From: Candidatus Dojkabacteria bacterium
GTDB lineage: Bacteria > Patescibacteriota > Dojkabacteria > J137
Direction: 5' to 3'
DNA: 64,000 bases
Assembly: GCA_025993875.1 (NCBI GenBank)
Contig: JAMQHH010000001.1
Coordinates: 2,785 to 66,784 of the forward strand
Position numbers and translations under genes: made by a program. This document shows positions 3,112 through 59,310 of the stretch, piece by piece (positions within the stretch are counted from its first letter, which is position 1; each line of letters opens with the position of its first letter). Under the pieces are notes generated by a model. The model was not told the DNA's origin. It was given only the letters and a program-made list of their open reading frames with translations, and ran no database searches.

Positions 3112-3176
3112 GAAAAGTTTTCTTGCCTATTTCTTAAAAGATCTTTATACTTATCTGTATATTTAAACAAATTATT

Positions 3177-3485: not shown

Positions 3486-3537
3486 AATAGCACTAATTTT
3501 GGAATATAATATATATCTAATAGATATTAATAAAAAT

Positions 3538-3828: not shown

Positions 3829-3851
3829 AAAATTAACTTTAAAACTTTATA

Positions 3852-3880
3852 AAATCCCAAACTTTGTTTGGGATTTTTGT
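3852..3880 (+). terminator. rho-independent terminator after rpsO
   Basis: 11-bp perfect stem AAATCCCAAAC/GTTTGGGATTT with a 3-nt loop, followed by a T-run. Confidence 0.55.
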
Positions 3881-3894
3881 TATCTTGTTAATGT

Positions 3895-25762: not shown

Positions 25763-25774
25763 TAAATTCAGAAT

Positions 25775-35424: not shown

Positions 35425-35429
35425 AACAT

Positions 35430-39478: not shown

Positions 39479-39498
39479 AAAATTGCTCAAAAGAGTGT

Positions 39499-39530
39499 AA
39501 AAATCCCGCCTTTGGCGGGATTTTTATTTT
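39499..39530 (+). terminator. rho-independent terminator after groEL
   Basis: Stem AAAAATCCCGCC / GGCGGGATTTTT with a TTTG loop, followed by a T-run. Confidence 0.7.
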
Positions 39531-39570: not shown

Positions 39571-39933
39571 TTGCACAAAAAATTTATGAGAATAATAATA
39601 GTAAACTATTTTACCTGGTGGTATTTGTTTGTTGTAAAAAAAGCTTTTACAACTTTAGTTTTTAACCCCTTTGTTTTTTCACTCTATAAAACGAAGACAT
39701 TGCCTATGCTTAAAAATTTTTCTGTCCCTTTATTTAGAAGTACAGAGTGGGGTGGAAAATATTTTAGCTTTTTTATTAGGTCTTGTTGGATAATTTTGGG
39801 AACCGCCATTTCATTTTTAAAAGTTATTCCGGGGTTATTTTTTTGGCTGGCAATAACTTTCGTTCCAGTTTTGATCTGGTTGCAGGTTATAAATTTTTTG
39901 ATTATTAATATCAATGGAGCTACTAAAAGATAA
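39571..39933 (+). CDS. small multi-TM membrane protein, hypothetical
   Basis: 120-aa ORF with ~3 hydrophobic helices. Overlaps the start of the Clp ATPase gene. Confidence 0.35.
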   Translation: MHKKFMRIIIVNYFTWWYLFVVKKAFTTLVFNPFVFSLYKTKTLPMLKNFSVPLFRSTEWGGKYFSFFIRSCWIILGTAISFLKVIPGLFFWLAITFVPVLIWLQVINFLIININGATKR

Positions 39934-42505: not shown

Positions 42506-42925
42506 ATGAAAAAAAATATTGTATCACTAGGATTTTCGGTTTTGATTTGTGGAGTATTATTATTTTCCCCGACGCAATATGTATCGGCTCAACAGCCGTC
42601 TGTCACTACAACAATAGCTGCAGGATTGGATAATTTAAATTATAAAATTCCTTGCCCAACAGTTTTTTGTTCGCTGGAAGATGTAGTAAATGCTGCAGCC
42701 AATTTGATAAGGCCAATATTCGTACTAACTTTTATTGCTATGTTAATTTATGGAGCATGGCTATGGCTTACATCACAAGGGGACGATAAAAAGCTCGGTA
42801 CGGCAAAAAAAGTAATTATTGCTGCAATTATAGGTTTTGCACTGGCTGTTTTTGCACCTACAATAGCACAGTTTATTGGCGGGCTTTTAGGGGTAAGTAA
42901 TGTATTTTCGTTACCAACAACATAA
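42506..42925 (+). CDS. secreted two-helix membrane protein, VirB2/TrbC pilin-like (paralog 1)
   Basis: Sec signal peptide ending VSA|QQ. Cys pair CPTVFC. TM1, loop SQGDDKKLGTAKK, then TM2. Confidence 0.6.
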   Translation: MKKNIVSLGFSVLICGVLLFSPTQYVSAQQPSVTTTIAAGLDNLNYKIPCPTVFCSLEDVVNAAANLIRPIFVLTFIAMLIYGAWLWLTSQGDDKKLGTAKKVIIAAIIGFALAVFAPTIAQFIGGLLGVSNVFSLPTT

Positions 42926-42927
42926 AT

Positions 42928-43581
42928 ATGTTTAAAAAAATAACTGCTACAATTACAATGCTCATTACTGCAATATTTTTGGTCACTTCTTTGGAGGTAT
43001 ATGCTCAGCCGGCAAACACTAATCAAACAGGCCAAGGCTCATGCGAGGGTGATCCCTATAAAATACCTGCACAATGCGAGGATAATTTTGTAATTGATCA
43101 GGAATGCCAGACAATTAAAATTTTAAGCCCGCAAAGTGAACAGGCAAGAACCTGCTGCCTTCATAAGTGTAAAGATGAACAGACTTCCGTAACAGGAAAT
43201 ACCGATAATATTTTAGATCAAAAGGATCTTTCTTTCTTAAATGTTTTTGGAGTAAGGCTTGGACTGGATTTTTCGGAGTCCGGCCGAACAAAAACAATTA
43301 CCACGTTAATTAATCTTGTTATTACAACAATTCTTGGAATATTTTCTATGTATGCACTTTTTAGAGGAGTTTACCTTGTGGCAATACAAAGGCCTGTTTT
43401 AATAAAACCCGAAGATATTTCTAAGTTAAACAAACAATTTACAAGTTTAATTGTAGGGTTTGTTTTGGCCTGGGGTATAATTTTTATAATTCAGGTAGTG
43501 TTTGCATTTTTGGGGCTAGGCAGCTTAACAGACTTTAATTTCGAAAACGCAGCAAACGGTATAACAATAACTATTAAGTAA
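42928..43581 (+). CDS. secreted Cys-rich ectodomain + two-helix pilin-like protein (paralog 2)
   Basis: Signal peptide ending VYA|QP. A 7-Cys N-terminal module followed by two TM helices. Confidence 0.55.
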   Translation: MFKKITATITMLITAIFLVTSLEVYAQPANTNQTGQGSCEGDPYKIPAQCEDNFVIDQECQTIKILSPQSEQARTCCLHKCKDEQTSVTGNTDNILDQKDLSFLNVFGVRLGLDFSESGRTKTITTLINLVITTILGIFSMYALFRGVYLVAIQRPVLIKPEDISKLNKQFTSLIVGFVLAWGIIFIIQVVFAFLGLGSLTDFNFENAANGITITIK

Positions 43582-43593
43582 GTAATTATTAAA

Positions 43594-44196
43594 ATGAAAA
43601 AACATTTACTTTCTATATTGTTTTTTATTTTGGCTGCCTTAGCTGCAGGAGCTTTTCCCATTGCTTATGCGCAATCAACAGAAAATAATATTGATATTGG
43701 TTTGCCCGAAGTTGCAATAAGTCCGATTACAATCCCTCTTTTTGGCGCACCAATCGATTTAGGAAATTTTTCAATATACTCCTGGGCAGTATTTTTGGGA
43801 GGAATTATCTTTGCCCTAATTATTGCTTATTGGATATTTTTGTTTTTAAGAGCAGGGGTAGAGGCAATGCAAAGTAATGGAAAACCCGAAGTTTTAGCCG
43901 ATGCAGGCAAAAAGGCAAGATCAATTTTAATTTCGGCTGCATTAACTTTTTTAGTGCCAATTATTTTAAGTGTAATTGGAGCTATTATGGGTATAGGCAA
44001 CGTTTTGGCATGGCCAAAGATGTTTAGTTTGTGCAACACCAAGGTTAGGCAATATATTGATGAAAATGGAGATCTCTCAACCGTATTCGATTCTCCTGCA
44101 GGCAAGAGTTTCTATTTTCAATATTATATTGAAAATCCAGATACTGCCGATTCAAATTGTTTTGCAGATTTAGGTAATAAATCTATTTATAGATAA
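43594..44196 (+). CDS. secreted two-helix pilin-like protein with C-terminal Cys-containing tail (paralog 3)
   Basis: Signal peptide ending AYA|QS. TM1, loop RAGVEAMQSNGKPEVLADAGKK, then TM2. C-terminal ~60 aa carry 2 Cys. Confidence 0.55.
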   Translation: MKKHLLSILFFILAALAAGAFPIAYAQSTENNIDIGLPEVAISPITIPLFGAPIDLGNFSIYSWAVFLGGIIFALIIAYWIFLFLRAGVEAMQSNGKPEVLADAGKKARSILISAALTFLVPIILSVIGAIMGIGNVLAWPKMFSLCNTKVRQYIDENGDLSTVFDSPAGKSFYFQYYIENPDTADSNCFADLGNKSIYR

Positions 44197-44209
44197 ATAA
44201 TTCGTATTT

Positions 44210-44656
44210 ATGAATAATATTGAAGTATTAAAAAGAATAAAAATAACTTGCATTTTTCTTTTGATGCTTATTACCCCTTTAACTTTGTCAACAGCTGTAT
44301 ATGCTCAAACCGATTCCACCTCTTTATGTGGGCTTTTCCCATGCGATCAATACACCCAGGACAGCAAAAATATAGATGTTGGATCTTTAATTAAATTTGG
44401 TTTAAGTGCTGTATTTGTTGCAATTATAATTATTGGAATTTTTTCGGTAATTAGAGCTGCTTTAAAAATAATTCAAAGTGAGGGAGACCCTAAAAAACTG
44501 GAGGAGGGAACAAATGTTTTAAAGGGAGTATGGTTTGGGCTGGTTATTATCTTTTTGGGGGTATTTGGGATAATTTTTATATTAATATTTTTTAATGCCC
44601 AGGGGGCAGCAGATCCAAATACAAACCTGCCACCTGGAGTTTTAACAAATCCGTAA
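44210..44656 (+). CDS. secreted two-helix pilin-like protein (paralog 4)
   Basis: Signal peptide ending VYA|QT. LCGLFPC Cys pair. TM1, loop IQSEGDPKKLEEG, then TM2. Confidence 0.6.
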   Translation: MNNIEVLKRIKITCIFLLMLITPLTLSTAVYAQTDSTSLCGLFPCDQYTQDSKNIDVGSLIKFGLSAVFVAIIIIGIFSVIRAALKIIQSEGDPKKLEEGTNVLKGVWFGLVIIFLGVFGIIFILIFFNAQGAADPNTNLPPGVLTNP

Positions 44657-44733
44657 TTTAAGTTAAACTATTGACTGTAGTAATTTATAATGATAAATTC
44701 AGAGGAGAATATATATAAATATTTAAAATTAGT

Positions 44734-45204
44734 ATGAAAAAAATTGCTCTTTCGGTGTTATTTCTTGCCATTTCGTTTTTTTCTATGCCTTTCCCTGTTT
44801 CTGCTGCAGGTACAAATAATCTTGTCTGCCAAATCTTTCCATTCTTAAGTTCAGTAGATGCATTTGGCATAAACTCTCTTTGCAGTGGTGTTACTGATCC
44901 TTCTGCGGCAACAAGTTTTATAAGATTTTTACTATCAGCAGTATTTGTTGGGATAATAATTATCTCAATCTATGTAGTAATCAAATCGGCATTAAAATAC
45001 ATACAAAGCGAAGGGGATGATAAAAAAATAGGAGAAGCAAGCAAAGCAATAAAAGCAGTGTTTATAGGTATAGCAGCTCTTTTTGTAGGAGTAATAGGAA
45101 TAATAATAGTGCTGGCATTTTTTAAGGCAACAGGGGCTTTAAAAACGGAAGATACACCAGACATAATTGATAACCTGCTAAGTACACCTTCACAATCGAA
45201 ATAA
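44734..45204 (+). CDS. secreted two-helix pilin-like protein (paralog 5)
   Basis: Signal peptide ending VSA|AG. VCQIFPF...LCSG Cys pair. TM1, loop IQSEGDDKKIGEASK, then TM2. Confidence 0.6.
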   Translation: MKKIALSVLFLAISFFSMPFPVSAAGTNNLVCQIFPFLSSVDAFGINSLCSGVTDPSAATSFIRFLLSAVFVGIIIISIYVVIKSALKYIQSEGDDKKIGEASKAIKAVFIGIAALFVGVIGIIIVLAFFKATGALKTEDTPDIIDNLLSTPSQSK

Positions 45205-45270
45205 GCACAGAGGTGATTCTGAGCCTTTTAAAACTTTTTTGAGGGCACTAAATAAGTATACAAAGATAAA

Positions 45271-46128
45271 TTGAAAAGAACTTTGCTGAAAACAATAAAA
45301 ACCGTTCCTTTTTCCCAATGGACAGGATTTAAGAAAAATTTTTTATTGCTACTTCTTTCTCTCTTATGTTTTATAAACTTTACGCAAACAGTTTCGGCCC
45401 AGTTTAGCAGCTCAGTTTTATCGGGTAACGATCCGGCCAGTTACGTTTGCCCGGGTGAAGATCCAGGCCTTCCGGTTAAAAGTGCAGACGATACTTGTAG
45501 TGCAGCAGACGGTAAATGTCGCACCCTGCCTTATTTGGATTCCACTTCTGGTTATTATGTTTGTAAATCAGACACCGGCATTGTAAGAGCAACACTAAAA
45601 GCTCCGCCATTGCAGCAACTTGAACTTTGGTTTAGAAGAATTTTGTATGCCATATGGGCAATTGTAGGATCTTTTTCTTTTGTTATGCTTATATACCTTG
45701 GTTATCAGTATATGATTCGCGGAGGAACAAGCGATCAGGAACTGGTAAAACTAAGAAAAGCGATTATTAATTACGTAGTTGGTTTTGCTTTAGTTTTTCT
45801 TTCTATTCCAATTTTAACTACCTTTTTTACAGTACTGGGAATAAATAAAAATGTAACTTGTTACGATGTGGCAATGCCTGGTTTTCAATTTTTCTTTTCG
45901 GAACTTTGCACTGATCCAAAGTATATACTTGTAAACGACCCATGCACATATTACGATAAAGCTGAGGGATATGCGTGCCCAGAAGTGGGAGAGACAGGTG
46001 TGAGGTGTATTATTAATCCTACGATTAACCCAACAGAGATACAATACAAATGTATATCAATAGAAGGATCATCTTCTGGCGCTGGAATTTGGAAACTAAT
46101 CGAAAGTGGAGTTCATGAAGAGTTTTAA
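45271..46128 (+). CDS. secreted Cys-rich two-helix pilin-like protein with Cys-rich C-terminal domain (paralog 6)
   Basis: Signal peptide ending VSA|QF. A 5-Cys N-module. TM1, loop RGGTSDQELVKLRK, then TM2. The ~95-aa C-terminal domain has 7 Cys. Confidence 0.55.
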   Translation: MKRTLLKTIKTVPFSQWTGFKKNFLLLLLSLLCFINFTQTVSAQFSSSVLSGNDPASYVCPGEDPGLPVKSADDTCSAADGKCRTLPYLDSTSGYYVCKSDTGIVRATLKAPPLQQLELWFRRILYAIWAIVGSFSFVMLIYLGYQYMIRGGTSDQELVKLRKAIINYVVGFALVFLSIPILTTFFTVLGINKNVTCYDVAMPGFQFFFSELCTDPKYILVNDPCTYYDKAEGYACPEVGETGVRCIINPTINPTEIQYKCISIEGSSSGAGIWKLIESGVHEEF

Positions 46129-46201
46129 GTTAAATTCAATTTATCTTGAACAATTTCCTTATCTGGCATAGAATAAAAGTAGCACTTAATTCTTTTTTGC
46201 T

Positions 46202-47806
46202 ATGCCTGTTTTAACCATAAAAAACTACAAAATAACCGATATTTTAGATAAAAGCCTCTTTACTACCAATTTTAGTTCTCCCATAAAATTAAAGCAGGAT
46301 GTTTTTTCTATACTTCAAAACGATCTTATATTTGTTTCTAATTTAAATCTTAATTTTTCAGTTAAAACATATTTAACTTTAGGTATAAATTTAGAAAATT
46401 CCGAAACAGAAATACAAATAGCTAAAAATTATAAAGAGAAGTCCTTTAAAATTACTCAAAACAATCAAGCTTTAGATACCGATCTTTTTAGCTTTCTGGA
46501 GCAAAAACTGGGTATAAAGTTTAAAGAGAAAAAACTTATCACTAAAATTTTTGATATATCGCATGAGGTTTTTAAGTCCAAAGAAGATGTGGCTAATTTT
46601 CTAAGTAAGTGTAAACCTAATTTGTTGGTGTTGAAAAACTATTCTGACACAAAAAATATTGATGACTTACTAAGTTCAGTTACCGAAGATAAAAAAGAAA
46701 AACTAAAAAAGGATGCCGAAAGTCTTGCCGATATTGAAGATCGCCAAATTAAAATCGAGAAAGGAATTGATCTTTATCAAAATGGTAAAAAGATTATCGA
46801 AACAAAAAATAAAGAAAAACAAACTCTTCAAAACGAGTTGGATGTATTAAGACAAAAGTTTTTATCAGTCGAGCATTTTGAGAAAAGACGCGCAGAGCTC
46901 GAACAAAGCATAAAAAGAATTGAAGTTGTTGGATCTGTCGAAAAGGTAGCAATCCTAAAAAAAGAGAGGTTAAATAAAATTATCGGATTTCTTAAGAATA
47001 TAAAATCTCGAGAACCTACCGCAGGCCCAAAATTTGATTGGGAAGATGAAATAGATAAAAGTTTTAGATCGATTAATGTACAAATTGCAGTTTTTGGTAT
47101 TTTACTTATAATTCAAATCATCTTTGGAATATTAACTTTAATCTTAAGTAGAGATGTAAAATCGTGGTTTTTTAGCCTTGCAATTTTTTTGTCCCTAATA
47201 ATCTTACTTATTATTTATAACTTATTAGGTCCCAAAACCTCTAAAAGAGTATTATTAAACTCCTTCGACGCAGGTTCCCAGGCTAAAATTCCCCAAGTTT
47301 CCTTTCTAACACAGGAAGATAAGATATTTGTAAACAATGCATATTTAAATGCTTACAGATCAGAATTAGAAACGATAAACAAAAGTATGCAAAAGGCTTT
47401 AGGGACAGATGGTTCTTTTATAGATCTAAAAGCTATGGTGCAAAGTACTGAAGGTAAATTAGTACAACTGGAAAATGAAATTAGTAAAATTAACCACGAT
47501 ATGTATACAACGGATGAATACTATAAGAAAAGACGAGAGCTTGATATACTAAAAATAGAAAAAGAAAATCTCGAATTTAGCTGGGGCAAGGAGGATCAGC
47601 CGTATCTTTCCCGGTTAAAAAGTGCCTTTAAAGAAACAAACGTGGGGCTAACTCTGTCCGAGCAGGGCACTCGTGTTTGGGAAGGATACCCGGTAGTAAT
47701 TACTGGGTGGCTAAGACTCTCTGATGGGTCTTTGCAAATTTTAAACGATTCAATAACCGAACTAAAAAACAAAGCTCAAATTTTACAACTTGATGTAGCA
47801 ATATAA
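46202..47806 (+). CDS. coiled-coil membrane protein (two central TM helices), hypothetical
   Basis: Extended heptad-like K/E-rich segments flank IAVFGILLIIQIIFGILTLIL and FFSLAIFLSLIILLIIYNLL. Confidence 0.5.
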   Translation: MPVLTIKNYKITDILDKSLFTTNFSSPIKLKQDVFSILQNDLIFVSNLNLNFSVKTYLTLGINLENSETEIQIAKNYKEKSFKITQNNQALDTDLFSFLEQKLGIKFKEKKLITKIFDISHEVFKSKEDVANFLSKCKPNLLVLKNYSDTKNIDDLLSSVTEDKKEKLKKDAESLADIEDRQIKIEKGIDLYQNGKKIIETKNKEKQTLQNELDVLRQKFLSVEHFEKRRAELEQSIKRIEVVGSVEKVAILKKERLNKIIGFLKNIKSREPTAGPKFDWEDEIDKSFRSINVQIAVFGILLIIQIIFGILTLILSRDVKSWFFSLAIFLSLIILLIIYNLLGPKTSKRVLLNSFDAGSQAKIPQVSFLTQEDKIFVNNAYLNAYRSELETINKSMQKALGTDGSFIDLKAMVQSTEGKLVQLENEISKINHDMYTTDEYYKKRRELDILKIEKENLEFSWGKEDQPYLSRLKSAFKETNVGLTLSEQGTRVWEGYPVVITGWLRLSDGSLQILNDSITELKNKAQILQLDVAI

Positions 47807-47807
47807 A

Positions 47808-49586
47808 ATGAACAGTGCTATAAAAAAACAAAATCTATCTAACTTAGTTATCTTTCTTCTTGTCGGACTTCTTTTTTTAAATCCGATAAATAACGTTATT
47901 GCTTTAACTTCCTCCGAAATTGTCGAAGAAAAAAGAAAACAGGAAGAAAAACTTGCTCAAACAGAATCTGAGATAGCAAGGCTAAATAGCGAAATTGCCG
48001 GTTATTCGTCGGACGTGAATATTGCACAGGCATCCATCCCCGAACTGGAAAATCAAATTAAAAAGATAGAAGCCCTGATTGAAGTAAATAAGCTCGAAAT
48101 TGAACAGACCCAAAGAAAAAAAGAGCTAACAAAATTAAAAAAAGAAGAAACAGAGCTTTTAAGACGAGAAAGTGTTAAAAGTTCGTACTTTGACTGGAGA
48201 ATTGATGTAGCCGAAATATCAACTCTATTTGTTTCCGAATTCGATAATAAAATGTCCGAATTCTTTTCTACTGCGGTTGTCAATAAAACAAGTAAGGATA
48301 TTATAGAATTAGCTCAAACAATAGACAATTTGGAAAGTGACATACAAAAATACAATAAAGAGAACGAAGATTTAAAAAAACAAAATTCAGATTTGGAGTA
48401 TAAAAAAAACGAAGTAATGGCGAGAATTGCATACCTTAATTCAATTATTGCAGGTAACAATTCTTCTATAGGTAACCTGCAGTCGGAAGTAAAAACTCTG
48501 CAATCCAATATCTCTTTTTTAAGTGAACAGCAAAGAGTTGCCGAAGAGAGGGAAAGACAACTCCTCGAAAATGATGATGGTGGTGAAAGCGGTCCAGGAA
48601 ATTCTTTCGATACTTCTGATGGTACAGTTCCATTTGCTATATTTGGAAGAGGAAGAGATCTTTATCAGGGGCACGGTGTTGGTTTAAGCCAGTGGGGAGC
48701 TCATGGGTTTGCTCTAAATGGCTTCGATTACAACTATATTTTAAGGTTCTACTATACAGGTGTAGATTTATCGGGCGGGTATGAAGGTGCCACAGTAAAT
48801 GTAGATGGGTACGGAGCGATTAACATAGAAGATTATGTGGCGGGACAGGAAGAAATAGCAGGACGAGCATGTGGTTCGGCGGAGCAGGCTCTAGCCAGAC
48901 CCGATAAATATGTTGTCGATAACCCTAACAGTATGTGGGATTGTTGGCCGGAGGAAGCAATAAAGGCTTTTGCAATAACATATAGAACTTACGGATATTT
49001 TTATAGAGGGTTTTTGTATAGGGATGGGCGTTCGCAGGTTTATAATGGAACGGGATATACAAGGTGGGCAGCCGATGAAACACGGGGGATTGTTATAACA
49101 TATGGCGGTGCTCCTATCGAAGCCTTATATTCTTCCGATAATAACCAAGGTTTTGGTACAGCAAATAACGATACCAGATTTCAGTCGTACAGTGGAGCCG
49201 GCACACCATATCCTTATTTAAGATCGGTAAACGACAACTCTATGGCGACAAGAACAGCATATACAGATTTTACTTACCGTACAGGAAACTACGATATCTC
49301 ACATATAAACAGCATGATAGATTTTGGTGTATCCAGGCCTGATATTGTCGGAGGATTATCGGGGTACTTAGCAGGTTTAAAAAATACAATAGGTAATCAG
49401 GCTGCATCCTTTATTGTAGAAAGGGATCCATCAAATAGAGCCGACAGAGTTAAATTTATGGGGTATAATGGATCTACAGCATATTTGGGGGGGTACTGGT
49501 TTAAATATCTGTGGAATGAATGGAGCTATGCTATTGGTGCAAACGACTATTTATATAGCCAAACATATTTTTTTCAATCTATATAG
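47808..49586 (+). CDS. membrane-anchored coiled-coil protein with C-terminal SpoIID/LytB-like domain (cell-wall remodelling)
   Basis: N-terminal anchor followed by ~230 aa of coiled coil. The SpoIID/LytB hallmark GHGVGLSQWGAHGFALNGFDYNYILRFYYTGVDL is present. Confidence 0.65.
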   Translation: MNSAIKKQNLSNLVIFLLVGLLFLNPINNVIALTSSEIVEEKRKQEEKLAQTESEIARLNSEIAGYSSDVNIAQASIPELENQIKKIEALIEVNKLEIEQTQRKKELTKLKKEETELLRRESVKSSYFDWRIDVAEISTLFVSEFDNKMSEFFSTAVVNKTSKDIIELAQTIDNLESDIQKYNKENEDLKKQNSDLEYKKNEVMARIAYLNSIIAGNNSSIGNLQSEVKTLQSNISFLSEQQRVAEERERQLLENDDGGESGPGNSFDTSDGTVPFAIFGRGRDLYQGHGVGLSQWGAHGFALNGFDYNYILRFYYTGVDLSGGYEGATVNVDGYGAINIEDYVAGQEEIAGRACGSAEQALARPDKYVVDNPNSMWDCWPEEAIKAFAITYRTYGYFYRGFLYRDGRSQVYNGTGYTRWAADETRGIVITYGGAPIEALYSSDNNQGFGTANNDTRFQSYSGAGTPYPYLRSVNDNSMATRTAYTDFTYRTGNYDISHINSMIDFGVSRPDIVGGLSGYLAGLKNTIGNQAASFIVERDPSNRADRVKFMGYNGSTAYLGGYWFKYLWNEWSYAIGANDYLYSQTYFFQSI

Positions 49587-49595
49587 GGTTTTTAT

Positions 49596-50339
49596 ATGAA
49601 TCCAGGGACACAAAAAAAACCGAATAATTTTTCCAATAATTCAAATAGCAGCCCTTCCGGTTCTTATCCTGCTGCACAACGATATACTCCTGAGCAGATT
49701 GCTTATATTCAAAGAAGAATGTATGTGCAGGAAATGGAAAAGGCAATTCCTCCAAAGTCCTCTAGCATATTGGGAACAATAGTTATAAGACCCAAAGGCA
49801 CCACATTTGGAACTCAAAATCCCGGGGAAAAGGTGTTTGTGCTGGTTAGAAGGCACTGGATAGCCAATGTTGGCTGGATATTTAGAAGTACATTATATCT
49901 ATTTATTCCATTTATAGTGGCTGCATTACTACCATTATTAGTAGACATTATAAATATAACAAATAACCCTGTGCCTTCGAGGATATGGATAATCATAATT
50001 GTTTCATATTATTCGGTAGTGCTAACTTTAACAATAAGAAATTTTGTAGAATGGTTTTACGATCTTTTAATTGTAACCAACCAAAGAATCTTGGATTACG
50101 AATTTAGCCCTTTTACAGGATATAATATAAAAGAGGCAGCTTTAGAAAATATTGAAGATATAAAGGAGGTTTCAAAAGATTTTTGGGGTGGTATATTTAG
50201 ATATGGAGATATCGAAGCGACAACTGCATCCAGCGAGGGAAAATTGAATTTCGATCAGGTACCTCATGTAACACTGGTCAGGGATATATTATCAGACTTA
50301 GCTAACATAGCCAAAAAATATAAGAAAAATGGAGATTAA
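49596..50339 (+). CDS. bPH_2/YdbT-like (DUF304-type) membrane protein
   Basis: Low-complexity N-terminus, two adjacent TM helices, then a PH-like beta domain (LIVTNQRILDY ... GDIEATTASSEGKLNFDQVPHV). Confidence 0.45.
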   Translation: MNPGTQKKPNNFSNNSNSSPSGSYPAAQRYTPEQIAYIQRRMYVQEMEKAIPPKSSSILGTIVIRPKGTTFGTQNPGEKVFVLVRRHWIANVGWIFRSTLYLFIPFIVAALLPLLVDIINITNNPVPSRIWIIIIVSYYSVVLTLTIRNFVEWFYDLLIVTNQRILDYEFSPFTGYNIKEAALENIEDIKEVSKDFWGGIFRYGDIEATTASSEGKLNFDQVPHVTLVRDILSDLANIAKKYKKNGD

Positions 50340-50544
50340 TTTATCGAAAGAAATATTAGAATTTTTAAAACTAGCCGCAATTTTATTTGGGCTTTTTCAT
50401 GTTTTGTTTGGATTTGTCTTATTTGTTAGAACCAATAGAATAAATAGCATTTTAAGAACAAGTAGTTCCTGGATAATTTCGATTATTGGAATTTTTTACA
50501 TTACTTTATTAATATTTGTCGTTTTATTACTTATATCGATTTAA
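50329..50544 (+). CDS. small two-TM membrane protein, hypothetical
   Basis: 71-aa ORF with two hydrophobic helices. Confidence 0.3.
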   Translation: MEINLSKEILEFLKLAAILFGLFHVLFGFVLFVRTNRINSILRTSSSWIISIIGIFYITLLIFVVLLLISI

Positions 50545-50545
50545 T

Positions 50546-53032
50546 ATGAAGTTAAGAGTAGAGTTTTTAAAAGGAGAAAATCGGGATAACGAATGGAAGG
50601 GAGCATTCTGGTTTCAGTCTGATACCGAAGATTTTCAAATATATTCTGTTATAAGAATAGCCTCCGAGGCTAACGTAAACCTGGAAATTATCGCCAAAAC
50701 TTTCTGGAACGATTTGCAGGACTCGTTTATTGACCTTGCAAAGAAACATTCCGATATGGCTTTAAGACTGGAGGATGCTGTGTGGAAAATGAAAGCAAAA
50801 ACCGAAGCTTTATTATCGAGAGATAGTGTAATAATGGAAAAAGGGATAGATATGGAGATGGGAATTCTAGTCTTTTGTGAAAATGTTGCCTATTGCGCTG
50901 TGATTGGGGAAAGTAAGATATTAATTTATAGAAATGAAAGGATGTCGGATATTAGCCAGGCGCTTATAGATTCTAACTTAACAGGATTTGTTAAGTTTGG
51001 AAGTTTTAAATTAGAACCCGAAGATAGAATACTTTTGGTAATTTCAAAAAACCTATCATTAAATTTTGCTGATTTAACAAATGCTGCCAAAGAACTCAAT
51101 ATTAACCTTTTAAATAATAACATTACTAAAAACCTTGATTGTGTTTTGTTTTTAGGAAGTGAAATATTAGATTGGTATCAAGAGATTGCTAAAACTACGG
51201 ATATCGAAGAGATAACTCCAAATCAAAACAATCCCGGTTTAGAAAATGAATCCGAATTTCCCGAGGAGAGCAATTTTGAAAAACAGCCGAAAGATATCAA
51301 AAAAGAAAGTGCAGAGGAAATTTTTCCTGATAAAGAGTATAGCTTTCCCTACCAAGAGCCGAAAAGAACTAATGGTTTTTTGGGTAGCATTAAATCTAGA
51401 TTTAAATTTAGCAACAGAGCTACCGATTCTATAATTACCAACAATGAAGCTGACTTAAAGAAGAGAGTTGCAAAGGAAGATGGAATGTTTAAGAAAGAAG
51501 AACATATTGATTTAGAACCAAAACGGAGAATAAGAATAAAACTAGATTTAAATATAGTTAAGTTAGCTGTAAAAAAAGCTTTAACTTTTCTCGTATCTAT
51601 ACCTGCGAAACTCTCAAATTATCTTAAAAATAATAAAAGTACCTACCTGCACATAATAAAGAATTTATTTGGTGGTATAAAGAAGTTTCTAAATTATTTA
51701 TGGCAGCTTTTTCAAAGAGAGATTATTGGTACTTCTGATAGAAGAGATTTCTTTATAAAGAGTAAGAGGAGAAGCCGAAATAGAAAAATCTTAGCTATAA
51801 TATTGACTATAATAGTCGTGTTTTTATTCTTTAGTTTTAGAGATGCCGAAAATAAAAGGATGGAGCAAGAGTACAAGGATAAGATTTTAACAACAATAAA
51901 GCAACTGGAAGTAAGCCAAACTGAAGTTTTAAACCAAAGTGGTTTAGATTCTTCTAAATCTGAACCGCTAAAAACTGAGCTTGCCAATAAACTTAACCAG
52001 CTTACTGTTGATGCTCAAAAAGAGATAAAAAGAATAACCGGTGTATCCGAAAACGAAAAAAAATATGCGACATATATAGCTAACTTAAACAAGATTATTC
52101 AAAAAAATCAAGAGATTTTAGACAAACTCAATAATGTTTTTACAGTTAATAACTCTAATATTAAAATTATTGCAGATCTCGAAAAATTATTTCCTGGTTC
52201 AGACATTAAAGACATTGAATTCTCTGGGGGAAATATTTACGCAGCAGATTCGGGAAATAATGCAATTTATAAAATTCCAATAAATTCCGGAGAAGAAACA
52301 AGAATGATAGTGCAAGATTTGGAATCCCCATCACTACTGGCCAAAAGCGTCGATGGAGATATAATTGTCTATGATAACAGTAATAGTGGGGCAATTGGTA
52401 AAATTTATACAAAAGAATCGGACAGGTTTGAAAGATTTGCAACACTAATTTATTCCTCTATTGGAAATGTAAAAGCAGTTGATATATATTCTGGAAACGA
52501 TGCATTATACGAGCTAAGAACATTCCCCAATCCATATATTTTTAAAAGAGAAAGAGAAGGAGCAGGATATGCTCCTGGAGGCGCTAATTATATTACGATT
52601 AATCCACCTAACTGGAGGGAAGATTCTGATTTTTCTAAAGGGCTTGATATTGCGGCTCCATATGAACTATATGTACTAATAGAGGGATCCGGTATAAAAA
52701 GGTATTTATCTGGTGGAGAAAATACACTAACACCCGACTTATACAAAAATTTTTCTACCGAGGATATAACTTCACTATCTAATGCAAGGGCGATAGATGC
52801 AAGAGGCAGTTATATGGCTGTATCTGATCCGGAAAATAAGAGGGTACTTCTTTTTAACATTGAATCGAATGAATCAAAAAGCCTTTTATTTATTGGACAA
52901 TATATATATAGGGGAGAGGAAGAAGTGTTAGAAACCCAGAAAGAAATTCTTATAAACGAGCTTTCGGCAAACAATTTGGAAATATATGTATTGGATCAAA
53001 ATCGCGTTATAGGCTTAAGCTTCCAGAACTAA
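50546..53032 (+). CDS. large single-pass membrane protein: cytoplasmic N-domain (possible degenerate PP2C-like fold), TM, extracytoplasmic beta-propeller-like domain
   Basis: MGILVFCENVAYCAVIGESKILIYRNE resembles the PP2C strand-GDSR region with the catalytic residues altered. TM helix ILAIILTIIVVFLFFSF at ~residue 420. C-terminal repeats (NIYAADSGNNAIYKI; DGDIIVYDNSNSG) are NHL/YVTN-like. Start taken at MKLRVEF. Confidence 0.45.
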   Translation: MKLRVEFLKGENRDNEWKGAFWFQSDTEDFQIYSVIRIASEANVNLEIIAKTFWNDLQDSFIDLAKKHSDMALRLEDAVWKMKAKTEALLSRDSVIMEKGIDMEMGILVFCENVAYCAVIGESKILIYRNERMSDISQALIDSNLTGFVKFGSFKLEPEDRILLVISKNLSLNFADLTNAAKELNINLLNNNITKNLDCVLFLGSEILDWYQEIAKTTDIEEITPNQNNPGLENESEFPEESNFEKQPKDIKKESAEEIFPDKEYSFPYQEPKRTNGFLGSIKSRFKFSNRATDSIITNNEADLKKRVAKEDGMFKKEEHIDLEPKRRIRIKLDLNIVKLAVKKALTFLVSIPAKLSNYLKNNKSTYLHIIKNLFGGIKKFLNYLWQLFQREIIGTSDRRDFFIKSKRRSRNRKILAIILTIIVVFLFFSFRDAENKRMEQEYKDKILTTIKQLEVSQTEVLNQSGLDSSKSEPLKTELANKLNQLTVDAQKEIKRITGVSENEKKYATYIANLNKIIQKNQEILDKLNNVFTVNNSNIKIIADLEKLFPGSDIKDIEFSGGNIYAADSGNNAIYKIPINSGEETRMIVQDLESPSLLAKSVDGDIIVYDNSNSGAIGKIYTKESDRFERFATLIYSSIGNVKAVDIYSGNDALYELRTFPNPYIFKREREGAGYAPGGANYITINPPNWREDSDFSKGLDIAAPYELYVLIEGSGIKRYLSGGENTLTPDLYKNFSTEDITSLSNARAIDARGSYMAVSDPENKRVLLFNIESNESKSLLFIGQYIYRGEEEVLETQKEILINELSANNLEIYVLDQNRVIGLSFQN

Positions 53033-53046
53033 TAATCTGTGTAAAT

Positions 53047-53505
53047 ATGAAAAAAGTATTAGCAAGCAATAAAAGCATAGGTTTCAATTACGAAATTTTA
53101 GAAAAACTTGAAGCAGGAGTAGTTCTTCTAGGCTGGGAGGTAAAAGCAATAAAAAACAGAAGAACAAACATGGAAAATGCTTATGTCATTATAAGAAGCA
53201 ACCAGGTTTTGTTAAAAAATCTTGTGTTGCCATTAAATTCCGATACAAAATTTTCGGATAAAAGCTTGCAAAATCGAGACAAAAAGTTATTATTAAACAA
53301 AAGAGAGATTGTTAAAATAAATCAAGCGGTAAAAATTCCTGGAAATAGTTGTGTACCCTTAAATATACACTTAAACGAGGGTAATCTTATTAAAATAGAA
53401 ATCGCAGTGGTTCGTGGAAGAAAAAAGTTTGATAAAAGAAATCTTTTAAAGAAAAGAGATATTCAAAAGCAGATAAATACAGAGAGAAAAAAATATAATT
53501 TTTAG
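53047..53505 (+). CDS. smpB: SsrA-binding protein SmpB
   Basis: NKSIGFNYEILEKLEAGVVLLGWEVKAI...LLLNKREI...CVPLNIHLNEGNLIKIEIAVVRGRKKFDKR matches SmpB over its full length, including the basic C-terminal tail. Confidence 0.85.
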   Translation: MKKVLASNKSIGFNYEILEKLEAGVVLLGWEVKAIKNRRTNMENAYVIIRSNQVLLKNLVLPLNSDTKFSDKSLQNRDKKLLLNKREIVKINQAVKIPGNSCVPLNIHLNEGNLIKIEIAVVRGRKKFDKRNLLKKRDIQKQINTERKKYNF

Positions 53506-53507
53506 AT

Positions 53508-54080
53508 ATGTCTACTAATATTTCAAATAAACAACTTCAAGACTTACTTAAAGCGCTAGAGCGTTTTGGGTTTAAGTTTTACGGCTATAACGAATCTCGG
53601 GAACCTTTAGTGCTAGCTCCAAATGGACAAATAACCTCAGTTTTGGTTGCATATAATTTTGTAAAAGATCAAATCGCAAAGCAAAAAATGCAAAATGCTA
53701 CCGGCTCTGGCTTGGGCTCACTCGAAAGCATAAACTTTTCCGATATTACTCCCGAAAAAATAGAAACGAATTTAGAAAACAATGTAGAAAAATCAATAGA
53801 AAAATCGCAGGAAACAACTTATAAGAAGGATGGATCGAATATGGGCTCATCGGTTTATCCGAGTAGTAAACAATCTAATGATGAAAAAAAAGGAAGTAGT
53901 AAAGTCGGGGAGATTCCAGTTCCATTCAGTTTTGGATTTTCACCAAAAAACTTCAATCCTACATCTGTGCAAGAAACATTAGACTTTATAAAGACCGCGA
54001 AAGTTGAAGATATAACCAGCTCCTCCAAGTGGCTCTCGGTGCAATTTCAAAAGTGGCTGGAAGAGTATCAAAAAAGATAG
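53508..54080 (+). CDS. hypothetical soluble protein
   Basis: ORF tightly packed between smpB and the coupling-protein-like gene. No recognisable motif. Confidence 0.4.
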   Translation: MSTNISNKQLQDLLKALERFGFKFYGYNESREPLVLAPNGQITSVLVAYNFVKDQIAKQKMQNATGSGLGSLESINFSDITPEKIETNLENNVEKSIEKSQETTYKKDGSNMGSSVYPSSKQSNDEKKGSSKVGEIPVPFSFGFSPKNFNPTSVQETLDFIKTAKVEDITSSSKWLSVQFQKWLEEYQKR

Positions 54081-54092
54081 GATAATGAAATT

Positions 54093-56546
54093 ATGCAGGG
54101 AATAAATATTTTGTTTAGTAGCGATATTTTAGCAAGATTGGGGCTTATAATAGGCCTTGTTTTTTTATTCCTGCTAATTATTTACTTGATTATAAGGGTA
54201 GCGATAAACTATGTAAAAGAAGCTGTTTTAAAGAAAAAATCTTTAAACCTCTCTTTTTTCGAAATTAAGGTTCCTCAAAGTAATGACGTAGAAATAAAAG
54301 CTGCAGAGCAAATGTATTCCGGTTTATCTACAATTACCGATAAGCTTAAAGGAATAGCAAAATACATTGGGGCAAACACATTTGTAAGCTTTGAAGTTAT
54401 TGCATTTAAGGAAAGTATAAGATTTTTTGTTGTTTGTCCAAAAAAAATTGCTGCAATAGTTGATAGACAAATAAATGGAACTTATCCTGTTGCCGAAATT
54501 GATTCTATTAAGGAATACAACTTGTTTAAAGACGAAGGAAGTGTTGCTTTTGGTGTTTTAGAACTCGATAAAGAGTCAAAAATTCCTATCCAGACATTTG
54601 AGGAGCTTCCGGTCGATACAATTGCTACCTTAACCGATACCTTAAGCAAGCTAGAAGAGGGAGAATCGGCAGCTTTTCAGATGGTTATATCCCCCGTATC
54701 TAGTGAATGGAGGTCTAAAGTAAAGCAATATCTTAAAAAAAATAGAGAAAAACCAGCAGATGAAGGGGATAAAGATAAGCCAAAACCTTCAAGCCCCAAA
54801 ATAGACGAAGAGGCCTTAAACATGGTAGATAAAAAGATTAGTAAGCCCAATTTTTATACAGATGTCCGAGTTATTGTAGTATCCGAAGATAAACAATTAG
54901 GAGAATCTCATCTTAATAACATTCTAAGTACATTTAATCCGTTTGCCAAAGAGGGCGGAAATCGGTTTAAAAAATCGAAAGATAAAAAATTAACAAAAAA
55001 TGTAATTACAGATTTTATTTATAGAATATCAAGGCAGGCAATGGTACTAAATACTGCCGAGCTTGCAACTCTTTTTCATTTGCCTAATAAAAATATAAAA
55101 ACACCTCATATTAAGTGGCTTTTATCTAAAACAGCTCCATCTCCCGATTTTGTTACCTCAAAATTTGATGATGATTATATGTATGTTGGTAAAAATTCGC
55201 ATCGAGGCTCAGCTAAAGAGATCTTTATAAAGCCCGACGATCGACTGAGACATTTTTATGTAATAGGTCAAACAGGTACGGGAAAGTCTAAATTTATGGC
55301 AGGAATGATGATAAGAGATATGAAGCTGGGCCATGGGTGCGCGTGGATAGAACCGCACGGAACTGATGCAGAGCTTATTTTACAGCAGGTGCCGCCTGAA
55401 AGAATTGATGATGTAATCTTTTTTGATCCCTCTGATATAGAGAGGCCTATAGGTTTAAACATGCTGGAATTTTCAAACGACGCACAAAGAACCATGGTTA
55501 CAAACGAAATGCTTAATATTTTTGATACTCTTTTTGACTTAAGAACAACGGGAGGTCCAATTTTCGAACAGTATTTTAGGTTTGGGATTATGTTATTAAC
55601 TGAAGATCCCGAATCTGGCTGCACCCTAATGGAGGTACCAAAAATTTTTGCAGATGATGGGTATAGGGAGTATAAACTTTCGAAAACGAAAAATCAGGAA
55701 GTAATAGACTTTTGGCGAAAACAGGCAGAAAAAGCCGGTGGGGAAGCTTCGTTAAAAAATATTGTGCCATATATTGTTTCAAAACTGGCGCCTTTTCTTA
55801 CCAATGCGTATATAAGGCCAATTATCTCGCAGCAAACTTCGGCAATTAATTTTAGAAAAATTATGGACGAAGGCAAAATTTTAATAGTAAAACTTTCTAA
55901 AGGTAAAATTGGTGACTATAATGCAAATCTTTTAGGAATGATTATTATTGGAAAGTTGCTGGTTGGTGCATTGGAAAGAGAGGATTTGGATGAAAAGTTA
56001 AGAAGACCATTTTATTTGTATATTGACGAGTTCCAAAACTTTTTGACTGATGGAATTAATATTATACTTTCTGAGGCCAGAAAATATAAACTGGCGCTAA
56101 CAATGGGACATCAATTTCTAGGACAGCTTACCAGAGCTAACAACAATACAAAAATCAGGGATGCTGTTTTTGGAAATGTAGGTAATAAAGCCATAATGAG
56201 AGTAGGAGAAGACGATGCTGCCTTTTTAAAGAAAGTTGTTGAAGGTCCTTTCGAAGAGAGCGATTTACAGCAACTGCCTAATGTTACGGCAGTAATAAAG
56301 CTCTTAGTCGAAGGAAAACCAACGCCTCCATTTACAGTCAGGTCTTTTTACGGGGAGTCTCCTTATGATTTAATTTCTCCATATAATAAAGAGCTTGCAA
56401 ACACAATAAAGCAGATCTCAAGACTAAAGTATGGAAGAGACATAAACATTGTAGAAAATGAAATAAAGCAAAGAGGAACCTTTATTAAGGAAAAAAAGGA
56501 CGAAAATAAAGGAGGAGGGCTGGGAGATTTTGGATTTGGTTTCTAA
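54093..56546 (+). CDS. type IV coupling protein-like ATPase (VirD4/TraG/TrwB family) with N-terminal TM helix and ~350-aa N-terminal extension
   Basis: Walker A HFYVIGQTGTGKSKF. AWIEPHGTDAEL and VIFFDPSDIERPIGLNMLEF fit the TrwB/TraG block (iivDpkGd ... v.v.dP.d..s...NpL). A ~240-aa all-alpha-like insertion precedes Walker B FYLYIDEFQNFL. This is followed by the arginine/glutamine sensor-like SEARKYKLALTMGHQFLGQL. Confidence 0.65.
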   Translation: MQGINILFSSDILARLGLIIGLVFLFLLIIYLIIRVAINYVKEAVLKKKSLNLSFFEIKVPQSNDVEIKAAEQMYSGLSTITDKLKGIAKYIGANTFVSFEVIAFKESIRFFVVCPKKIAAIVDRQINGTYPVAEIDSIKEYNLFKDEGSVAFGVLELDKESKIPIQTFEELPVDTIATLTDTLSKLEEGESAAFQMVISPVSSEWRSKVKQYLKKNREKPADEGDKDKPKPSSPKIDEEALNMVDKKISKPNFYTDVRVIVVSEDKQLGESHLNNILSTFNPFAKEGGNRFKKSKDKKLTKNVITDFIYRISRQAMVLNTAELATLFHLPNKNIKTPHIKWLLSKTAPSPDFVTSKFDDDYMYVGKNSHRGSAKEIFIKPDDRLRHFYVIGQTGTGKSKFMAGMMIRDMKLGHGCAWIEPHGTDAELILQQVPPERIDDVIFFDPSDIERPIGLNMLEFSNDAQRTMVTNEMLNIFDTLFDLRTTGGPIFEQYFRFGIMLLTEDPESGCTLMEVPKIFADDGYREYKLSKTKNQEVIDFWRKQAEKAGGEASLKNIVPYIVSKLAPFLTNAYIRPIISQQTSAINFRKIMDEGKILIVKLSKGKIGDYNANLLGMIIIGKLLVGALEREDLDEKLRRPFYLYIDEFQNFLTDGINIILSEARKYKLALTMGHQFLGQLTRANNNTKIRDAVFGNVGNKAIMRVGEDDAAFLKKVVEGPFEESDLQQLPNVTAVIKLLVEGKPTPPFTVRSFYGESPYDLISPYNKELANTIKQISRLKYGRDINIVENEIKQRGTFIKEKKDENKGGGLGDFGFGF

Positions 56547-56606: not shown

Positions 56607-56680
56607 AGGCTCGTAGCTCAGTTGGTTAGAGCACGGTTCTTATAAAGCCGGGGTCCGCAGTTCGAATCTGCGCGAGCCTA
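56607..56680 (+). tRNA. tRNA-Ile (anticodon UAU)
   Basis: Hand-folded cloverleaf. Acceptor AGGCTCG/CGAGCCT, D-stem GCTC/GAGC, anticodon stem CGGTT/AGCCG with loop CTTATAA, T-arm CGCAG-TTCGAAT-CTGCG. Body resembles bacterial tRNA-Ile. Confidence 0.75.
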
Positions 56681-56749: not shown

Positions 56750-57595
56750 TCATTCAGGAAAAATTTTTGGGATTAAAAATTTTTCTGTTCTTTGGTGTCT
56801 GTTTGAATTTGTAAGGTATTTTTTAGTAGTAATTATATTTTTATGGCCAACCAATTTACTTACTGTTTTTAGTTCCATGCCCGAAGCAAGCTGAAATACT
56901 ATAAAAGTATTGCGTAAGTCGTTTACACATAAATTTTTTACTTTAGCCTTCTCAAATATTCTATCTAGACCGCTACGTATATTTCTTACTTCTATAGACT
57001 TCCCGGTGTTAGTAGAAAAAATAGGATAATCGGGTAGAGATCTTTTTCCAGCTAATTTTAAGTATTGATCTAATAGCTGATGTATCTTTGAGTTTAGCGG
57101 TACCTGCCTGCTTGCAACTGTTATAAATTTGAAATTCTTATCTAAATCTTTTATTTTAAGTGCACTAAGCTCAGAAATCTTTAGACCGGTCTGAAGAAAA
57201 CACTCAAATATTGTTAGCAACTTAATATTTTCAACACTCCCCAAAATTATTGAATTATATTCATTTTTTGTTAAAACTCGTAAGGTTTTTACCCTATATT
57301 TAGGATGCGAGATTGCTTTTGCAGGATTTATTTTAATAACTTCTACACTAACCAGATAATCAAAAAATTTTTTTAGACTGTTTATTTTTCTTGAAACAGA
57401 TTGTGGAGAAAGTTTGTATCTATATTTTAGAGTGGTTAGCAATTGCAAAAGATCTTTGGTTGAAACTTTTGGCAAGCTATCTCCTGAAATTGCAATTATT
57501 TGATTTAAATCGTTCGTATATGCATGTATCGTTGACTCTGTTCTGCTATTATGTTTAAGATAGGTTGTAAATTTGGATAGGTAATCTTGTATCAT
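56750..57595 (-). CDS. tyrosine recombinase, XerC/XerD-like (phage-integrase family)
   Basis: N-terminal SAM-like core-binding domain (TIHAYTNDLNQ...FFDYL). C-terminal catalytic motifs LRNTFIVFQLASGMELKTVSKLVGHKNIITTKKYL (R, HxxR, catalytic Y). 281 aa. Confidence 0.8.
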   Translation of the reverse strand: MIQDYLSKFTTYLKHNSRTESTIHAYTNDLNQIIAISGDSLPKVSTKDLLQLLTTLKYRYKLSPQSVSRKINSLKKFFDYLVSVEVIKINPAKAISHPKYRVKTLRVLTKNEYNSIILGSVENIKLLTIFECFLQTGLKISELSALKIKDLDKNFKFITVASRQVPLNSKIHQLLDQYLKLAGKRSLPDYPIFSTNTGKSIEVRNIRSGLDRIFEKAKVKNLCVNDLRNTFIVFQLASGMELKTVSKLVGHKNIITTKKYLTNSNRHQRTEKFLIPKIFPE

Positions 57596-58072: not shown

Positions 58073-58116
58073 CTGCTTTTTTATAGTATAATCTCATCAC
58101 TATTATAGAAATTGTT

Positions 58117-58188
58117 CGCGGGGTAGAGCAGTGGCAGCTCGCAAGGCTCATAACCTTGAGGTCGTACGTTCGAGTCGTACCCCCGCAA
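58117..58188 (+). tRNA. initiator tRNA-fMet (anticodon CAU)
   Basis: CGCGGGGTAGAGCAGTGGCAGCTCGCAAGGCTCATAACCTTGAGGTCGTACGTTCGAGTCGTACCCCCGCAA. Has a C1:A72 mismatch and is close to E. coli tRNA-fMet (CGCGGGG...CCCCCGCAACCA). Confidence 0.85.
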
Positions 58189-58285
58189 AGTTTTCTAAGT
58201 TAGATAACAAAACAGGAAAACTGATTTGTTATCTGCATTAGAAATAAAGCAGATAAAAGCCCCTACACGTTTGTCGGGGCTTTTT

Positions 58286-59077: not shown

Positions 59078-59192
59078 AGATTAACTTTTACCATTTTGCT
59101 AAAATTCTTAGCCGATTTTAAAGCTTTTTTTGGTAAAATTACAGTAGGCAGGTGTTAGACTCAAGTTATTTCGTCTGATAAAAGTTATTAAT

Positions 59193-59266
59193 AGCAGGAT
59201 AGCTCAGAAGGTTAGAGCACAGGATTCATAAACCTGAGGTCGGGAGTTCGATTCTCCCTCCTGCTA
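59193..59266 (+). tRNA. tRNA-Met (anticodon CAU; elongator or possibly Ile2/lysidine type)
   Basis: Acceptor AGCAGGA/TCCTGCT, D-arm GCTC-AGAAGGTTA-GAGC, anticodon loop TTCATAA, T-arm GGGAG-TTCGATT-CTCCC. The 31:39 pair is an A-A mismatch. Confidence 0.75.
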
Positions 59267-59310
59267 ATTAGTTAAAGACGTTTTTAGTATTTTAAACATA
59301 ACAAAAATTT

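Follow-up and report, generated by a model that had tools for sequence, protein, structure and literature searches.

The 64,000-nucleotide stretch analysed here (hereafter the window; contig JAMQHH010000001.1 of Candidatus Dojkabacteria bacterium) carries, at positions 42,506 to 56,546, a block of same-strand genes in which an array of six small pilin-like proteins is followed, 8 kb further down the same string of genes, by an 817-amino acid (aa) ATPase that resembles the coupling proteins (T4CP) of type IV secretion systems (T4SS). The original prediction, made from this DNA sequence, interpreted the block as a streamlined, self-contained T4SS-like apparatus operating without VirB4, VirB6, VirB11 or a relaxase. 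The question raised by the locus is whether its genes make up one such machine or a set of separate modules. On balance, our analysis favours the second option, with the block being a conserved piece of the Dojkabacteria chromosome in which separate modules are arranged head to tail in one co-directional gene string.

The closest relatives of the proteins encoded in the window are from Candidatus Dojkabacteria, a class of the Patescibacteria or candidate phyla radiation (CPR), whose members account for much of bacterial diversity and have a lifestyle of attachment to host cells. The window presents a low and uniform GC content (0.31-0.38) and is packed with core genes (ftsQ/A/Z, rpoD, parAB, ileS, groEL, ftsH and smpB). 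All the open reading frames (ORFs) of the block were verified at the positions given in Table 1, with intergenic gaps of -11 to 77 nucleotides. Genes lie exclusively on the forward strand from a strong terminator after groEL (39497-39527) to the tRNA-Ile gene at 56607, and no terminator was predicted between 39.5 and 56.5 kb, the promoter and terminator scan being uninformative within the block.

Conservation of the block across the Patescibacteria

The comparative analysis encompassed 84 loci, of which 80 are genome loci holding the ATPase and four come from assemblies. At least 8 kb of upstream sequence was available for 51 loci, and the taxon labels of many third-party annotation (TPA) loci are unreliable. 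The queries used against the ORFs of these loci were the window proteins and an iterated hidden Markov model (HMM) of the pilins. Only four of the 84 loci had pilin genes at 10 kb or less from the ATPase: three from Dojkabacteria, where they lie upstream as in the window, and one from a Parcubacterium, where they lie downstream. The order of the whole block (ClpB-like protein, pilins, coiled-coil protein, SpoIID, bPH-like protein, propeller protein, smpB, small protein, ATPase, Xer and FtsH) was kept in all the Dojkabacteria loci with enough flanking sequence, even at an ATPase identity of about 40%, whereas in Microgenomatia loci only ATPase-Xer(-FtsH) remains of it. One Levybacteria locus presents the SpoIID/bPH pair downstream, with no pilins.

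Given that pilins are near the ATPase in so few loci, and that all the ATPase retains elsewhere is its small upstream partner, joined in some classes by Xer and FtsH, the block is a juxtaposition of modules specific to one class and not an integrated conjugative element (ICE). The original prediction had named the finding of pilin genes and ATPase in unrelated contexts in relatives as evidence against a common apparatus. This is largely what was observed outside the Dojkabacteria, while within this class the synteny of the block was upheld. The accompanying proposal that the block is chromosomally fixed, and not a recently acquired ICE, is in agreement with the conserved order, the uniform GC content and the absence of an att-like repeat.

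The pilin array

All six small proteins matched the Pfam family PF18895 (T4SS_pilin), pilins 1 and 6 above the gathering cut-off and the others with E values of 0.024-0.087, and pilins 2-5 grouped with pilins 1 and 6 in an HMM built from all six. A hydropathy scan revealed in each of the six an N-terminal signal-like hydrophobic segment and two more hydrophobic helices, separated by a short, charged loop that aligns as S-E/Q-G-D-x-K-K. Pairwise identity among the six proteins ranges from 24 to 46%, and a word-indexed homologue search with pilin 1 returned 10 matches. The pilin-like nature originally attributed to these proteins was hence borne out and, as judged from their sequences, the six are VirB2-type pilins.

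The 817-aa ATPase and its small partner

The ATPase encompasses an N-terminal transmembrane (TM) helix, a VirB4-like N-terminal domain (aa 48-350; 54234-55142), mapping to Pfam DUF8128 (PF26449) in homologues, and a T4CP-type motor (aa ~360-800) with Walker A (GQTGTGKS, 392-399) and Walker B (YIDEF, 643-647) motifs. The motor shows the features that characterise T4CPs, namely a RecA-like nucleotide-binding domain, an inserted all-alpha domain and intact Walker A and B motifs. Searched alone, the protein fell just below the Pfam thresholds for TraG-D_C (21.1, cut-off 22), TrwB_AAD_bind (16.1, cut-off 20.5) and DUF87. Its homologues, which number in the thousands in the CPR, carry PF10412, PF02534 and PF12696 together with DUF8128. 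A profile of 35 ATPase sequences matched DotL and TrwB in the PDB, and the alignment of the family profile with TrwB in hhalign spanned 263 columns (91% probability, E 9e-7), in support of the coupling-protein-like ATPase of the original prediction. Against VirB4 proteins the same profile yielded probabilities of 1.5% (TrwK) and 2.2% (PrgJ), with nothing aligned beyond the P-loop, and no VirB4 Pfam family (PF03135, PF19044, PF12846) was detected in any ATPase homologue.

The match obtained with the N-terminal domain corresponds to the N-terminal domain of VirB4, because a VirB4 crystal structure comprising only the C-terminal domain and all RecA-like ATPases were absent from the list of matches. 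The ATPase presents in this way the layout of VirB4, in which a VirB4-type N-terminal domain is combined with a C-terminal motor. In R388, the N-terminal domain of VirB4 binds VirB3 and the tails of VirB8 and mediates VirB4 dimerisation (PMC9259494). The DUF8128 domain family comprises 1,627 cluster representatives at 50% identity, with the domain always starting near residue 40-110, and a literature search for DUF8128 or PF26449 found no paper. The ATPase is, in summary, a single-TM motor that is T4CP-like by sequence and bears a VirB4-type N-terminal domain, and this VirB4-like front domain on a coupling-type ATPase is the fresh detail of the locus.

Compared to the coupling proteins TrwB of R388, VirD4, DotL and Cag-beta, the window ATPase has one TM helix instead of two and contains a cytoplasmic domain of 300 residues between anchor and motor, which the structures of the canonical T4CPs TrwB, VirD4 and DotL do not present. 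It also lacks an adjacent relaxase, and its Pfam and NCBIfam scores are all below the curated cut-offs. From VirB4 (TrwK of R388 and the VirB4 of T. pseudethanolicus) it differs in carrying its own TM helix and in the lack of VirB4 profile similarity, and bona fide TrsD and VirB4 genes exist separately in the phylum. A role of the ATPase as a substitute for FtsK was rejected on the fold scores, which did not return an FtsK-type motor fold, and on the ftsK annotated in TM7x. A pair of paralogous DUF8128-type ATPase genes, about 5 kb or less apart, was found in each of the loci L082 and L084, one of them from Nomurabacteria, which fits the reported figure of approximately two T4CP homologues in each genome of the phylum.

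A same-strand small ORF, mostly of 115-200 aa, ends directly before the ATPase in 72 of the 84 loci. These positional partners form eight class-specific families, for which homology across CPR classes was detectable only in a short C-terminal motif (E 7e-4 to 6e-3). This W-L tail motif is common to three of the eight families, which comprise Dojkabacteria-like and some Microgenomatia loci.

Absence of core T4SS genes from the window

The scans with Pfam and NCBIfam returned no match to VirB4, VirB6, VirB11 or a relaxase in any ORF scanned in the 64 kb, in line with the original prediction. A phmmer search of all window ORFs with 24 T4SS proteins and relaxases of R388 and pCF10 had no hit at E<=1, with a power so low that the relationship between TrwB and the ATPase was also missed. 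The P-loop ORFs of at least 200 aa in the window are a Lon-like AAA protein, the ClpB-like protein, FtsH, an ABC ATPase, the 817-aa ATPase and a signal-peptidase ORF (15854-16456), in which we take the P-loop to be a chance match. The 817-aa ATPase is the only P-loop protein of the VirB4/VirD4 class in the 64 kb. No VirB4-like ORF was found in the 84 ATPase loci either, their 22 large P-loop ORFs belonging to DnaX-like, SMC-like and similar groups.

The published record provides the context for these absences. A relaxase-free T4SS with a series of pilins was described by Wang et al. (2023) as essential in the saccharibacterium Southlakia epibionticum (PMC10633639), and a 2025 review attributes six VirB2-like pilins to this T4SS (PMC12857230); together, the two papers describe the six pilins as essential. 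In the survey of 3,035 Patescibacteria genomes by Quinonero-Coronel et al. (2025), VirB4 was found in 2,417 genomes and defined a clade within the monoderm MPF-FATA class, 383 assemblies had VirB2 arrays of 2-11 genes with ~25% identity, and relaxases were rare (PMC12102498). The same survey counted 5,713 T4CP homologues in 2,918 of the 3,035 genomes, with 148 of the 5,713 near virB4. In its Table S3, pilin arrays of Woesebacteria and Levybacteria are a few genes away from TrsD-VirB4 and a single t4cp1 is tens of genes off, and in the available portion of its Table S1 two Dojkabacteria assemblies are scored 'Yes' for VirB4. Since the phylum and, in that portion of the table, these two assemblies are VirB4-positive, the missing VirB4 is most likely an effect of the window edge and not the mark of a streamlined machine.

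Genes between the pilins and the ATPase

The features of the block and of its immediate flanks are listed in Table 1.

Table 1. Genes of the block and its flanks, with positions in the window
Feature	Position	Strand	Evidence
ClpB/ClpC-like double AAA+ protein, two N-terminal TM helices	39914..42496	+	AAA_2 159.8 bits, ClpB_D2-small
VirB2-like T4SS pilin 1, 139 aa	42506..42925	+	PF18895 38.6 bits (cut-off 26.6)
VirB2-like pilin 2, 217 aa, Cys-rich N-terminal extension, 6 Cys	42928..43581	+	PF18895 E 0.026, sub-threshold
VirB2-like pilin 3, 200 aa	43594..44196	+	PF18895 E 0.024
VirB2-like pilin 4, 148 aa	44210..44656	+	PF18895 E 0.087; 44% identity to pilin 5
VirB2-like pilin 5, 156 aa	44734..45204	+	PF18895 E 0.04
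VirB2-like pilin 6, 285 aa, Cys-rich extensions at both ends, 11 Cys	45271..46128	+	PF18895 37.6 bits (cut-off 26.6)
Coiled-coil protein with two-TM hairpin, 534 aa	46202..47806	+	TM helices aa 297-342
Membrane-anchored coiled-coil SpoIID/LytB-domain protein, 592 aa	47808..49586	+	TIGR02669 98.9 bits (cut-off 83.3), PF08486 30 bits (cut-off 23)
Two-TM membrane protein (bPH-like), 247 aa	49596..50339	+	bPH_3 19 bits, bPH_2 15.5 bits, both below cut-off
Small two-TM protein, 71 aa	50329..50544	+	PF18901 DUF5657 20 bits (cut-off 25), weak
Single-pass receptor-like protein, 828 aa	50546..53032	+	Cytoplasmic N-domain, TM, coiled coil, extracellular NHL six-blade propeller
smpB, housekeeping gene (tmRNA binding) within the block	53047..53505	+	PF01668 133.9 bits
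Small soluble protein, 190 aa, positional partner of the ATPase	53508..54080	+	Same-strand ORF before the ATPase
Membrane-anchored ATPase, 817 aa	54093..56546	+	TM helix aa 16-34; VirB4-NTD-like domain; T4CP-type motor
tRNA-Ile(TAT)	56607-56680	+	ARAGORN
Xer-type tyrosine recombinase	56750-57595	-	Phage_integrase and SAM_1 domains

The coiled-coil protein that follows the pilins, with its two adjacent TM helices, corresponds to the original description; it had no family match in the Pfam and NCBIfam scans, and its position is kept in the Dojkabacteria loci. In the Dojkabacteria locus L009, the slot between pilins and SpoIID is occupied by a 703-aa SMC_N/AAA_27 ATPase (2606-4717), with no detectable sequence similarity to the 534-aa protein.

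The SpoIID/LytB protein, with an N-terminal TM helix and a long coiled-coil stalk, is a putative hydrolase of peptidoglycan glycan strands. It shares with the SpoIID/LytB lytic transglycosylases a domain scoring above the curated cut-offs, export and membrane anchoring, their catalytic role being putative in the window protein. A VirB1-like role had originally been suggested for it; the domain assignment stands, and no homology to VirB1 was detected with hhalign, the protein not being homologous to VirB1, TrsG, CD419 or PrgK. The adjacent membrane protein is encoded where predicted, with sub-threshold matches to the bPH families that gave it its name. Its gene is paired with SpoIID in L001, L022, L035 and L042, the last of which has the pair without pilins. 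The 71-aa two-TM ORF downstream, absent from the gene list of the original prediction, is conserved in L001 and L088.

The propeller protein had been predicted as a single-pass protein of 838 aa with an extracellular beta-propeller-like domain. Both the propeller and the one TM helix (aa 425-443 in the 838-aa numbering) were recovered, and its start is probably the ATG at 50546, yielding 828 aa, as judged from P0121. A word-indexed homologue search with the 838-aa protein had three matches. Its C-terminal part is an NHL-type propeller: a profile of seven homologues matched in the PDB the 'Pizza' propeller designs (E 2e-16), which are derived from PknD, and the PknD sensor itself (1rwi, E 1.7e-5). 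The cytoplasmic domain presents a faint hint of PP2C (PstP, E 0.55; Pfam PP2C, E 0.054, in one homologue). The protein hence looks like a receptor with an outer NHL sensor of the PknD type. Next to it, smpB was located inside the block, as had been noted.

Comparison in hhalign of the 534-aa, SpoIID, bPH, 828-aa, 190-aa, DUF5657 and flank families with VirB1-B11 and PrgD-M produced nothing credible, the best result being a coiled-coil match to PrgM with 38% probability. By this measure, the genes between the pilins and the ATPase do not look like parts of a T4SS.

Flanking genes and other features of the window

The gene for the ClpB/ClpC-like protein ends nine nucleotides before the start of pilin 1, and the same adjacency was observed in the Dojkabacteria loci L087 and L088; on this adjacency, a functional link to the pilins is putative. 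A membrane-anchored unfoldase beside a pilin array is unusual. An ORF for a 120-aa protein with two TM helices (39571-39933) overlaps the start of this gene. Further upstream, a gene for an FtsA/PilM-like actin-fold protein is followed by one for a 658-aa protein without family match (34195-37406, forward strand), and this pair is also found upstream of groES/groEL in L087 and L088.

On the other side, 18 loci from Dojkabacteria and Microgenomatia have the recombinase downstream of the ATPase and in the opposite orientation, often closely followed by FtsH. No att-like direct repeat of the end of the tRNA-Ile gene was found near the recombinase. A tRNA-Ile with anticodon TAT is uncommon in bacteria, where a lysidine-modified CAT tRNA usually decodes AUA; two tRNA-Met(CAT) genes (58116-58189 and 59192-59267) are located nearby.

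Elsewhere in the window, the comF mentioned in the original prediction was confirmed as a comF-like gene with DZR_2 and PRTase architecture (29036-29713). The reverse strand encodes a PIN toxin with a Phd-like antitoxin (487-1326) and a polytopic membrane protein of 573 aa, whose C-terminal domain is soluble and which has no Pfam or NCBIfam match (1390-3111). The forward strand encodes a fused HEPN and nucleotidyltransferase protein (10221-11018) and an S24 peptidase (LexA/UmuD-like) adjoining a Y-family DNA polymerase (25364-27040).

Interpretation of the locus

An arrangement of this type is not new, relaxase-free chromosomal T4SS with six-pilin arrays having been published in 2023 and 2025. 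The T4SS of S. epibionticum (SEML1_0006-0019) shares with the window a chromosomal location, the lack of a relaxase, six divergent PF18895 pilins and a monoderm host, and in both this species and the 2025 survey the T4CP homologue is located, as here, outside the virB4 cluster. The window differs from these systems in that its array has no TrsD, VirB4, VirB3 or VirB6 in the 42 kb before it or the 8 kb after it, being surrounded instead by the ClpB-like AAA+ protein, the coiled-coil protein and SpoIID, and in that its T4CP homologue lies 8 kb downstream of the pilins, an arrangement seen only in Dojkabacteria.

The conservation and tight packing of the block in Dojkabacteria, and the lack of any other VirB4-class P-loop protein in the 64 kb, would be consistent with a self-sufficient machine in which the 817-aa ATPase performs the tasks of both VirB4 and VirD4 and assembles the pilins without VirB4, VirB6 or VirB11. 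We nonetheless regard such a machine as unlikely, given the 80 loci of 84 in which no pilin gene accompanies the same ATPase within 10 kb, the proximity of Microgenomatia pilin arrays to TrsD-VirB4, with the T4CP far off, and the VirB4-positive Dojkabacteria assemblies in the available part of Table S1 (PMC12102498). In addition, no polytopic VirB6-like channel protein is encoded in the block, smpB and a signalling-type receptor interrupt it, and the intervening genes do not resemble T4SS components. The self-contained apparatus of the original prediction is hence not upheld.

The recombinase downstream of the ATPase, with FtsH and SmpB nearby, the membership of T4CPs in the FtsK/HerA superfamily and the exaptation of t4cp for other functions raised in the 2025 survey (PMC12102498) would all suit an ATPase exapted as a chromosome DNA translocase, acting with Xer in dimer resolution or segregation, unrelated to secretion and only by coincidence a neighbour of pilins. 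Since the recombinase is convergent to the ATPase, the two are not co-transcribed, and neither Paceibacteria nor ABY1 loci show Xer adjacency; together with the annotated ftsK of at least one Patescibacterium (TM7x), these observations make an exapted translocase decidedly unlikely. The position of the tRNA-Ile gene, directly followed by a tyrosine recombinase, might alternatively suggest that both mark, with the T4CP, one end of a remnant ICE of which the pilins are the leftover mating-pair apparatus. This interpretation is largely refuted and in our view scarcely credible: the window contains no relaxase and no direct repeat of the tRNA end, its GC content is uniform, the recombinase has an XerC/D-type SAM_1 N-terminal domain, the ATPase-Xer-FtsH order is conserved between classes, and smpB, GroEL and FtsH are interleaved with the block.

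Some observations also weigh against the arrangement of separate modules that we favour. Four of the six pilins score under the Pfam cut-off. The tight spacing, with no terminator predicted between 39.5 and 56.5 kb, allows for co-transcription of pilins and ATPase, and the maintenance of the block across deep Dojkabacteria divergence makes a class-specific functional coupling possible. The expected presence of VirB4, TrsD and VirB6 in this genome would draw solely on a literature table for other Dojkabacteria. Furthermore, the T4CP homologue of S. epibionticum is non-essential while its T4SS is essential (PMC12102498), which implies that the ATPase may not serve the T4SS at all.

If the block does consist of separate modules, its six VirB2-type pilins would belong to the T4SS described in Patescibacteria. 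After export through Sec, they would be kept in the membrane as a store of two-helix hairpins, which a TrsD/VirB4-VirB3-VirB6 machine, with its genes in another part of the genome, would polymerise into a pilus or conduit directed at the host cell. A pilus has not yet been imaged for any Patescibacterium (PMC12857230). The SpoIID wall hydrolase and the propeller receptor would fulfil separate envelope functions, these two proteins being devoid of T4SS homology, as are the two-TM coiled-coil and bPH-like proteins. The small, fast-evolving soluble protein and the single-TM ATPase would constitute a phylum-wide two-gene module. In it, the ATPase would operate, like other members of its superfamily, as a membrane-bound ring-shaped motor, docked through its N-terminal domain to partners in the membrane or to the small soluble protein, and would either feed substrates to the T4SS or act beside it; its link to the T4SS is unproven. 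A tentative extension, which we deem possible if doubtful, is that the DUF8128 ATPases are no ordinary coupling proteins but represent a third, phylum-wide VirB4/VirD4 branch that retains a VirB4-type docking domain at the N-terminus of a T4CP-type motor. Together with the rapidly evolving small upstream partner, such an ATPase would form an autonomous membrane translocation motor, which in Dojkabacteria would have been brought into one gene string with the pilin array and may itself drive or gate the pilus.

The T4SS and its pilin array are essential in the one genetically tractable species of the Patescibacteria, and the current picture of this system is left unchanged by the window, which adds a Dojkabacteria example of a pilin array detached from virB4. 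The window also shows that the 'T4CP' found almost universally in the phylum carries a VirB4-like N-terminal domain and is constantly accompanied by a small partner gene. This provides a lead on the divergence of VirB4 and VirD4 and, given the non-essentiality of the homologue in S. epibionticum, on the job of the second ATPase.

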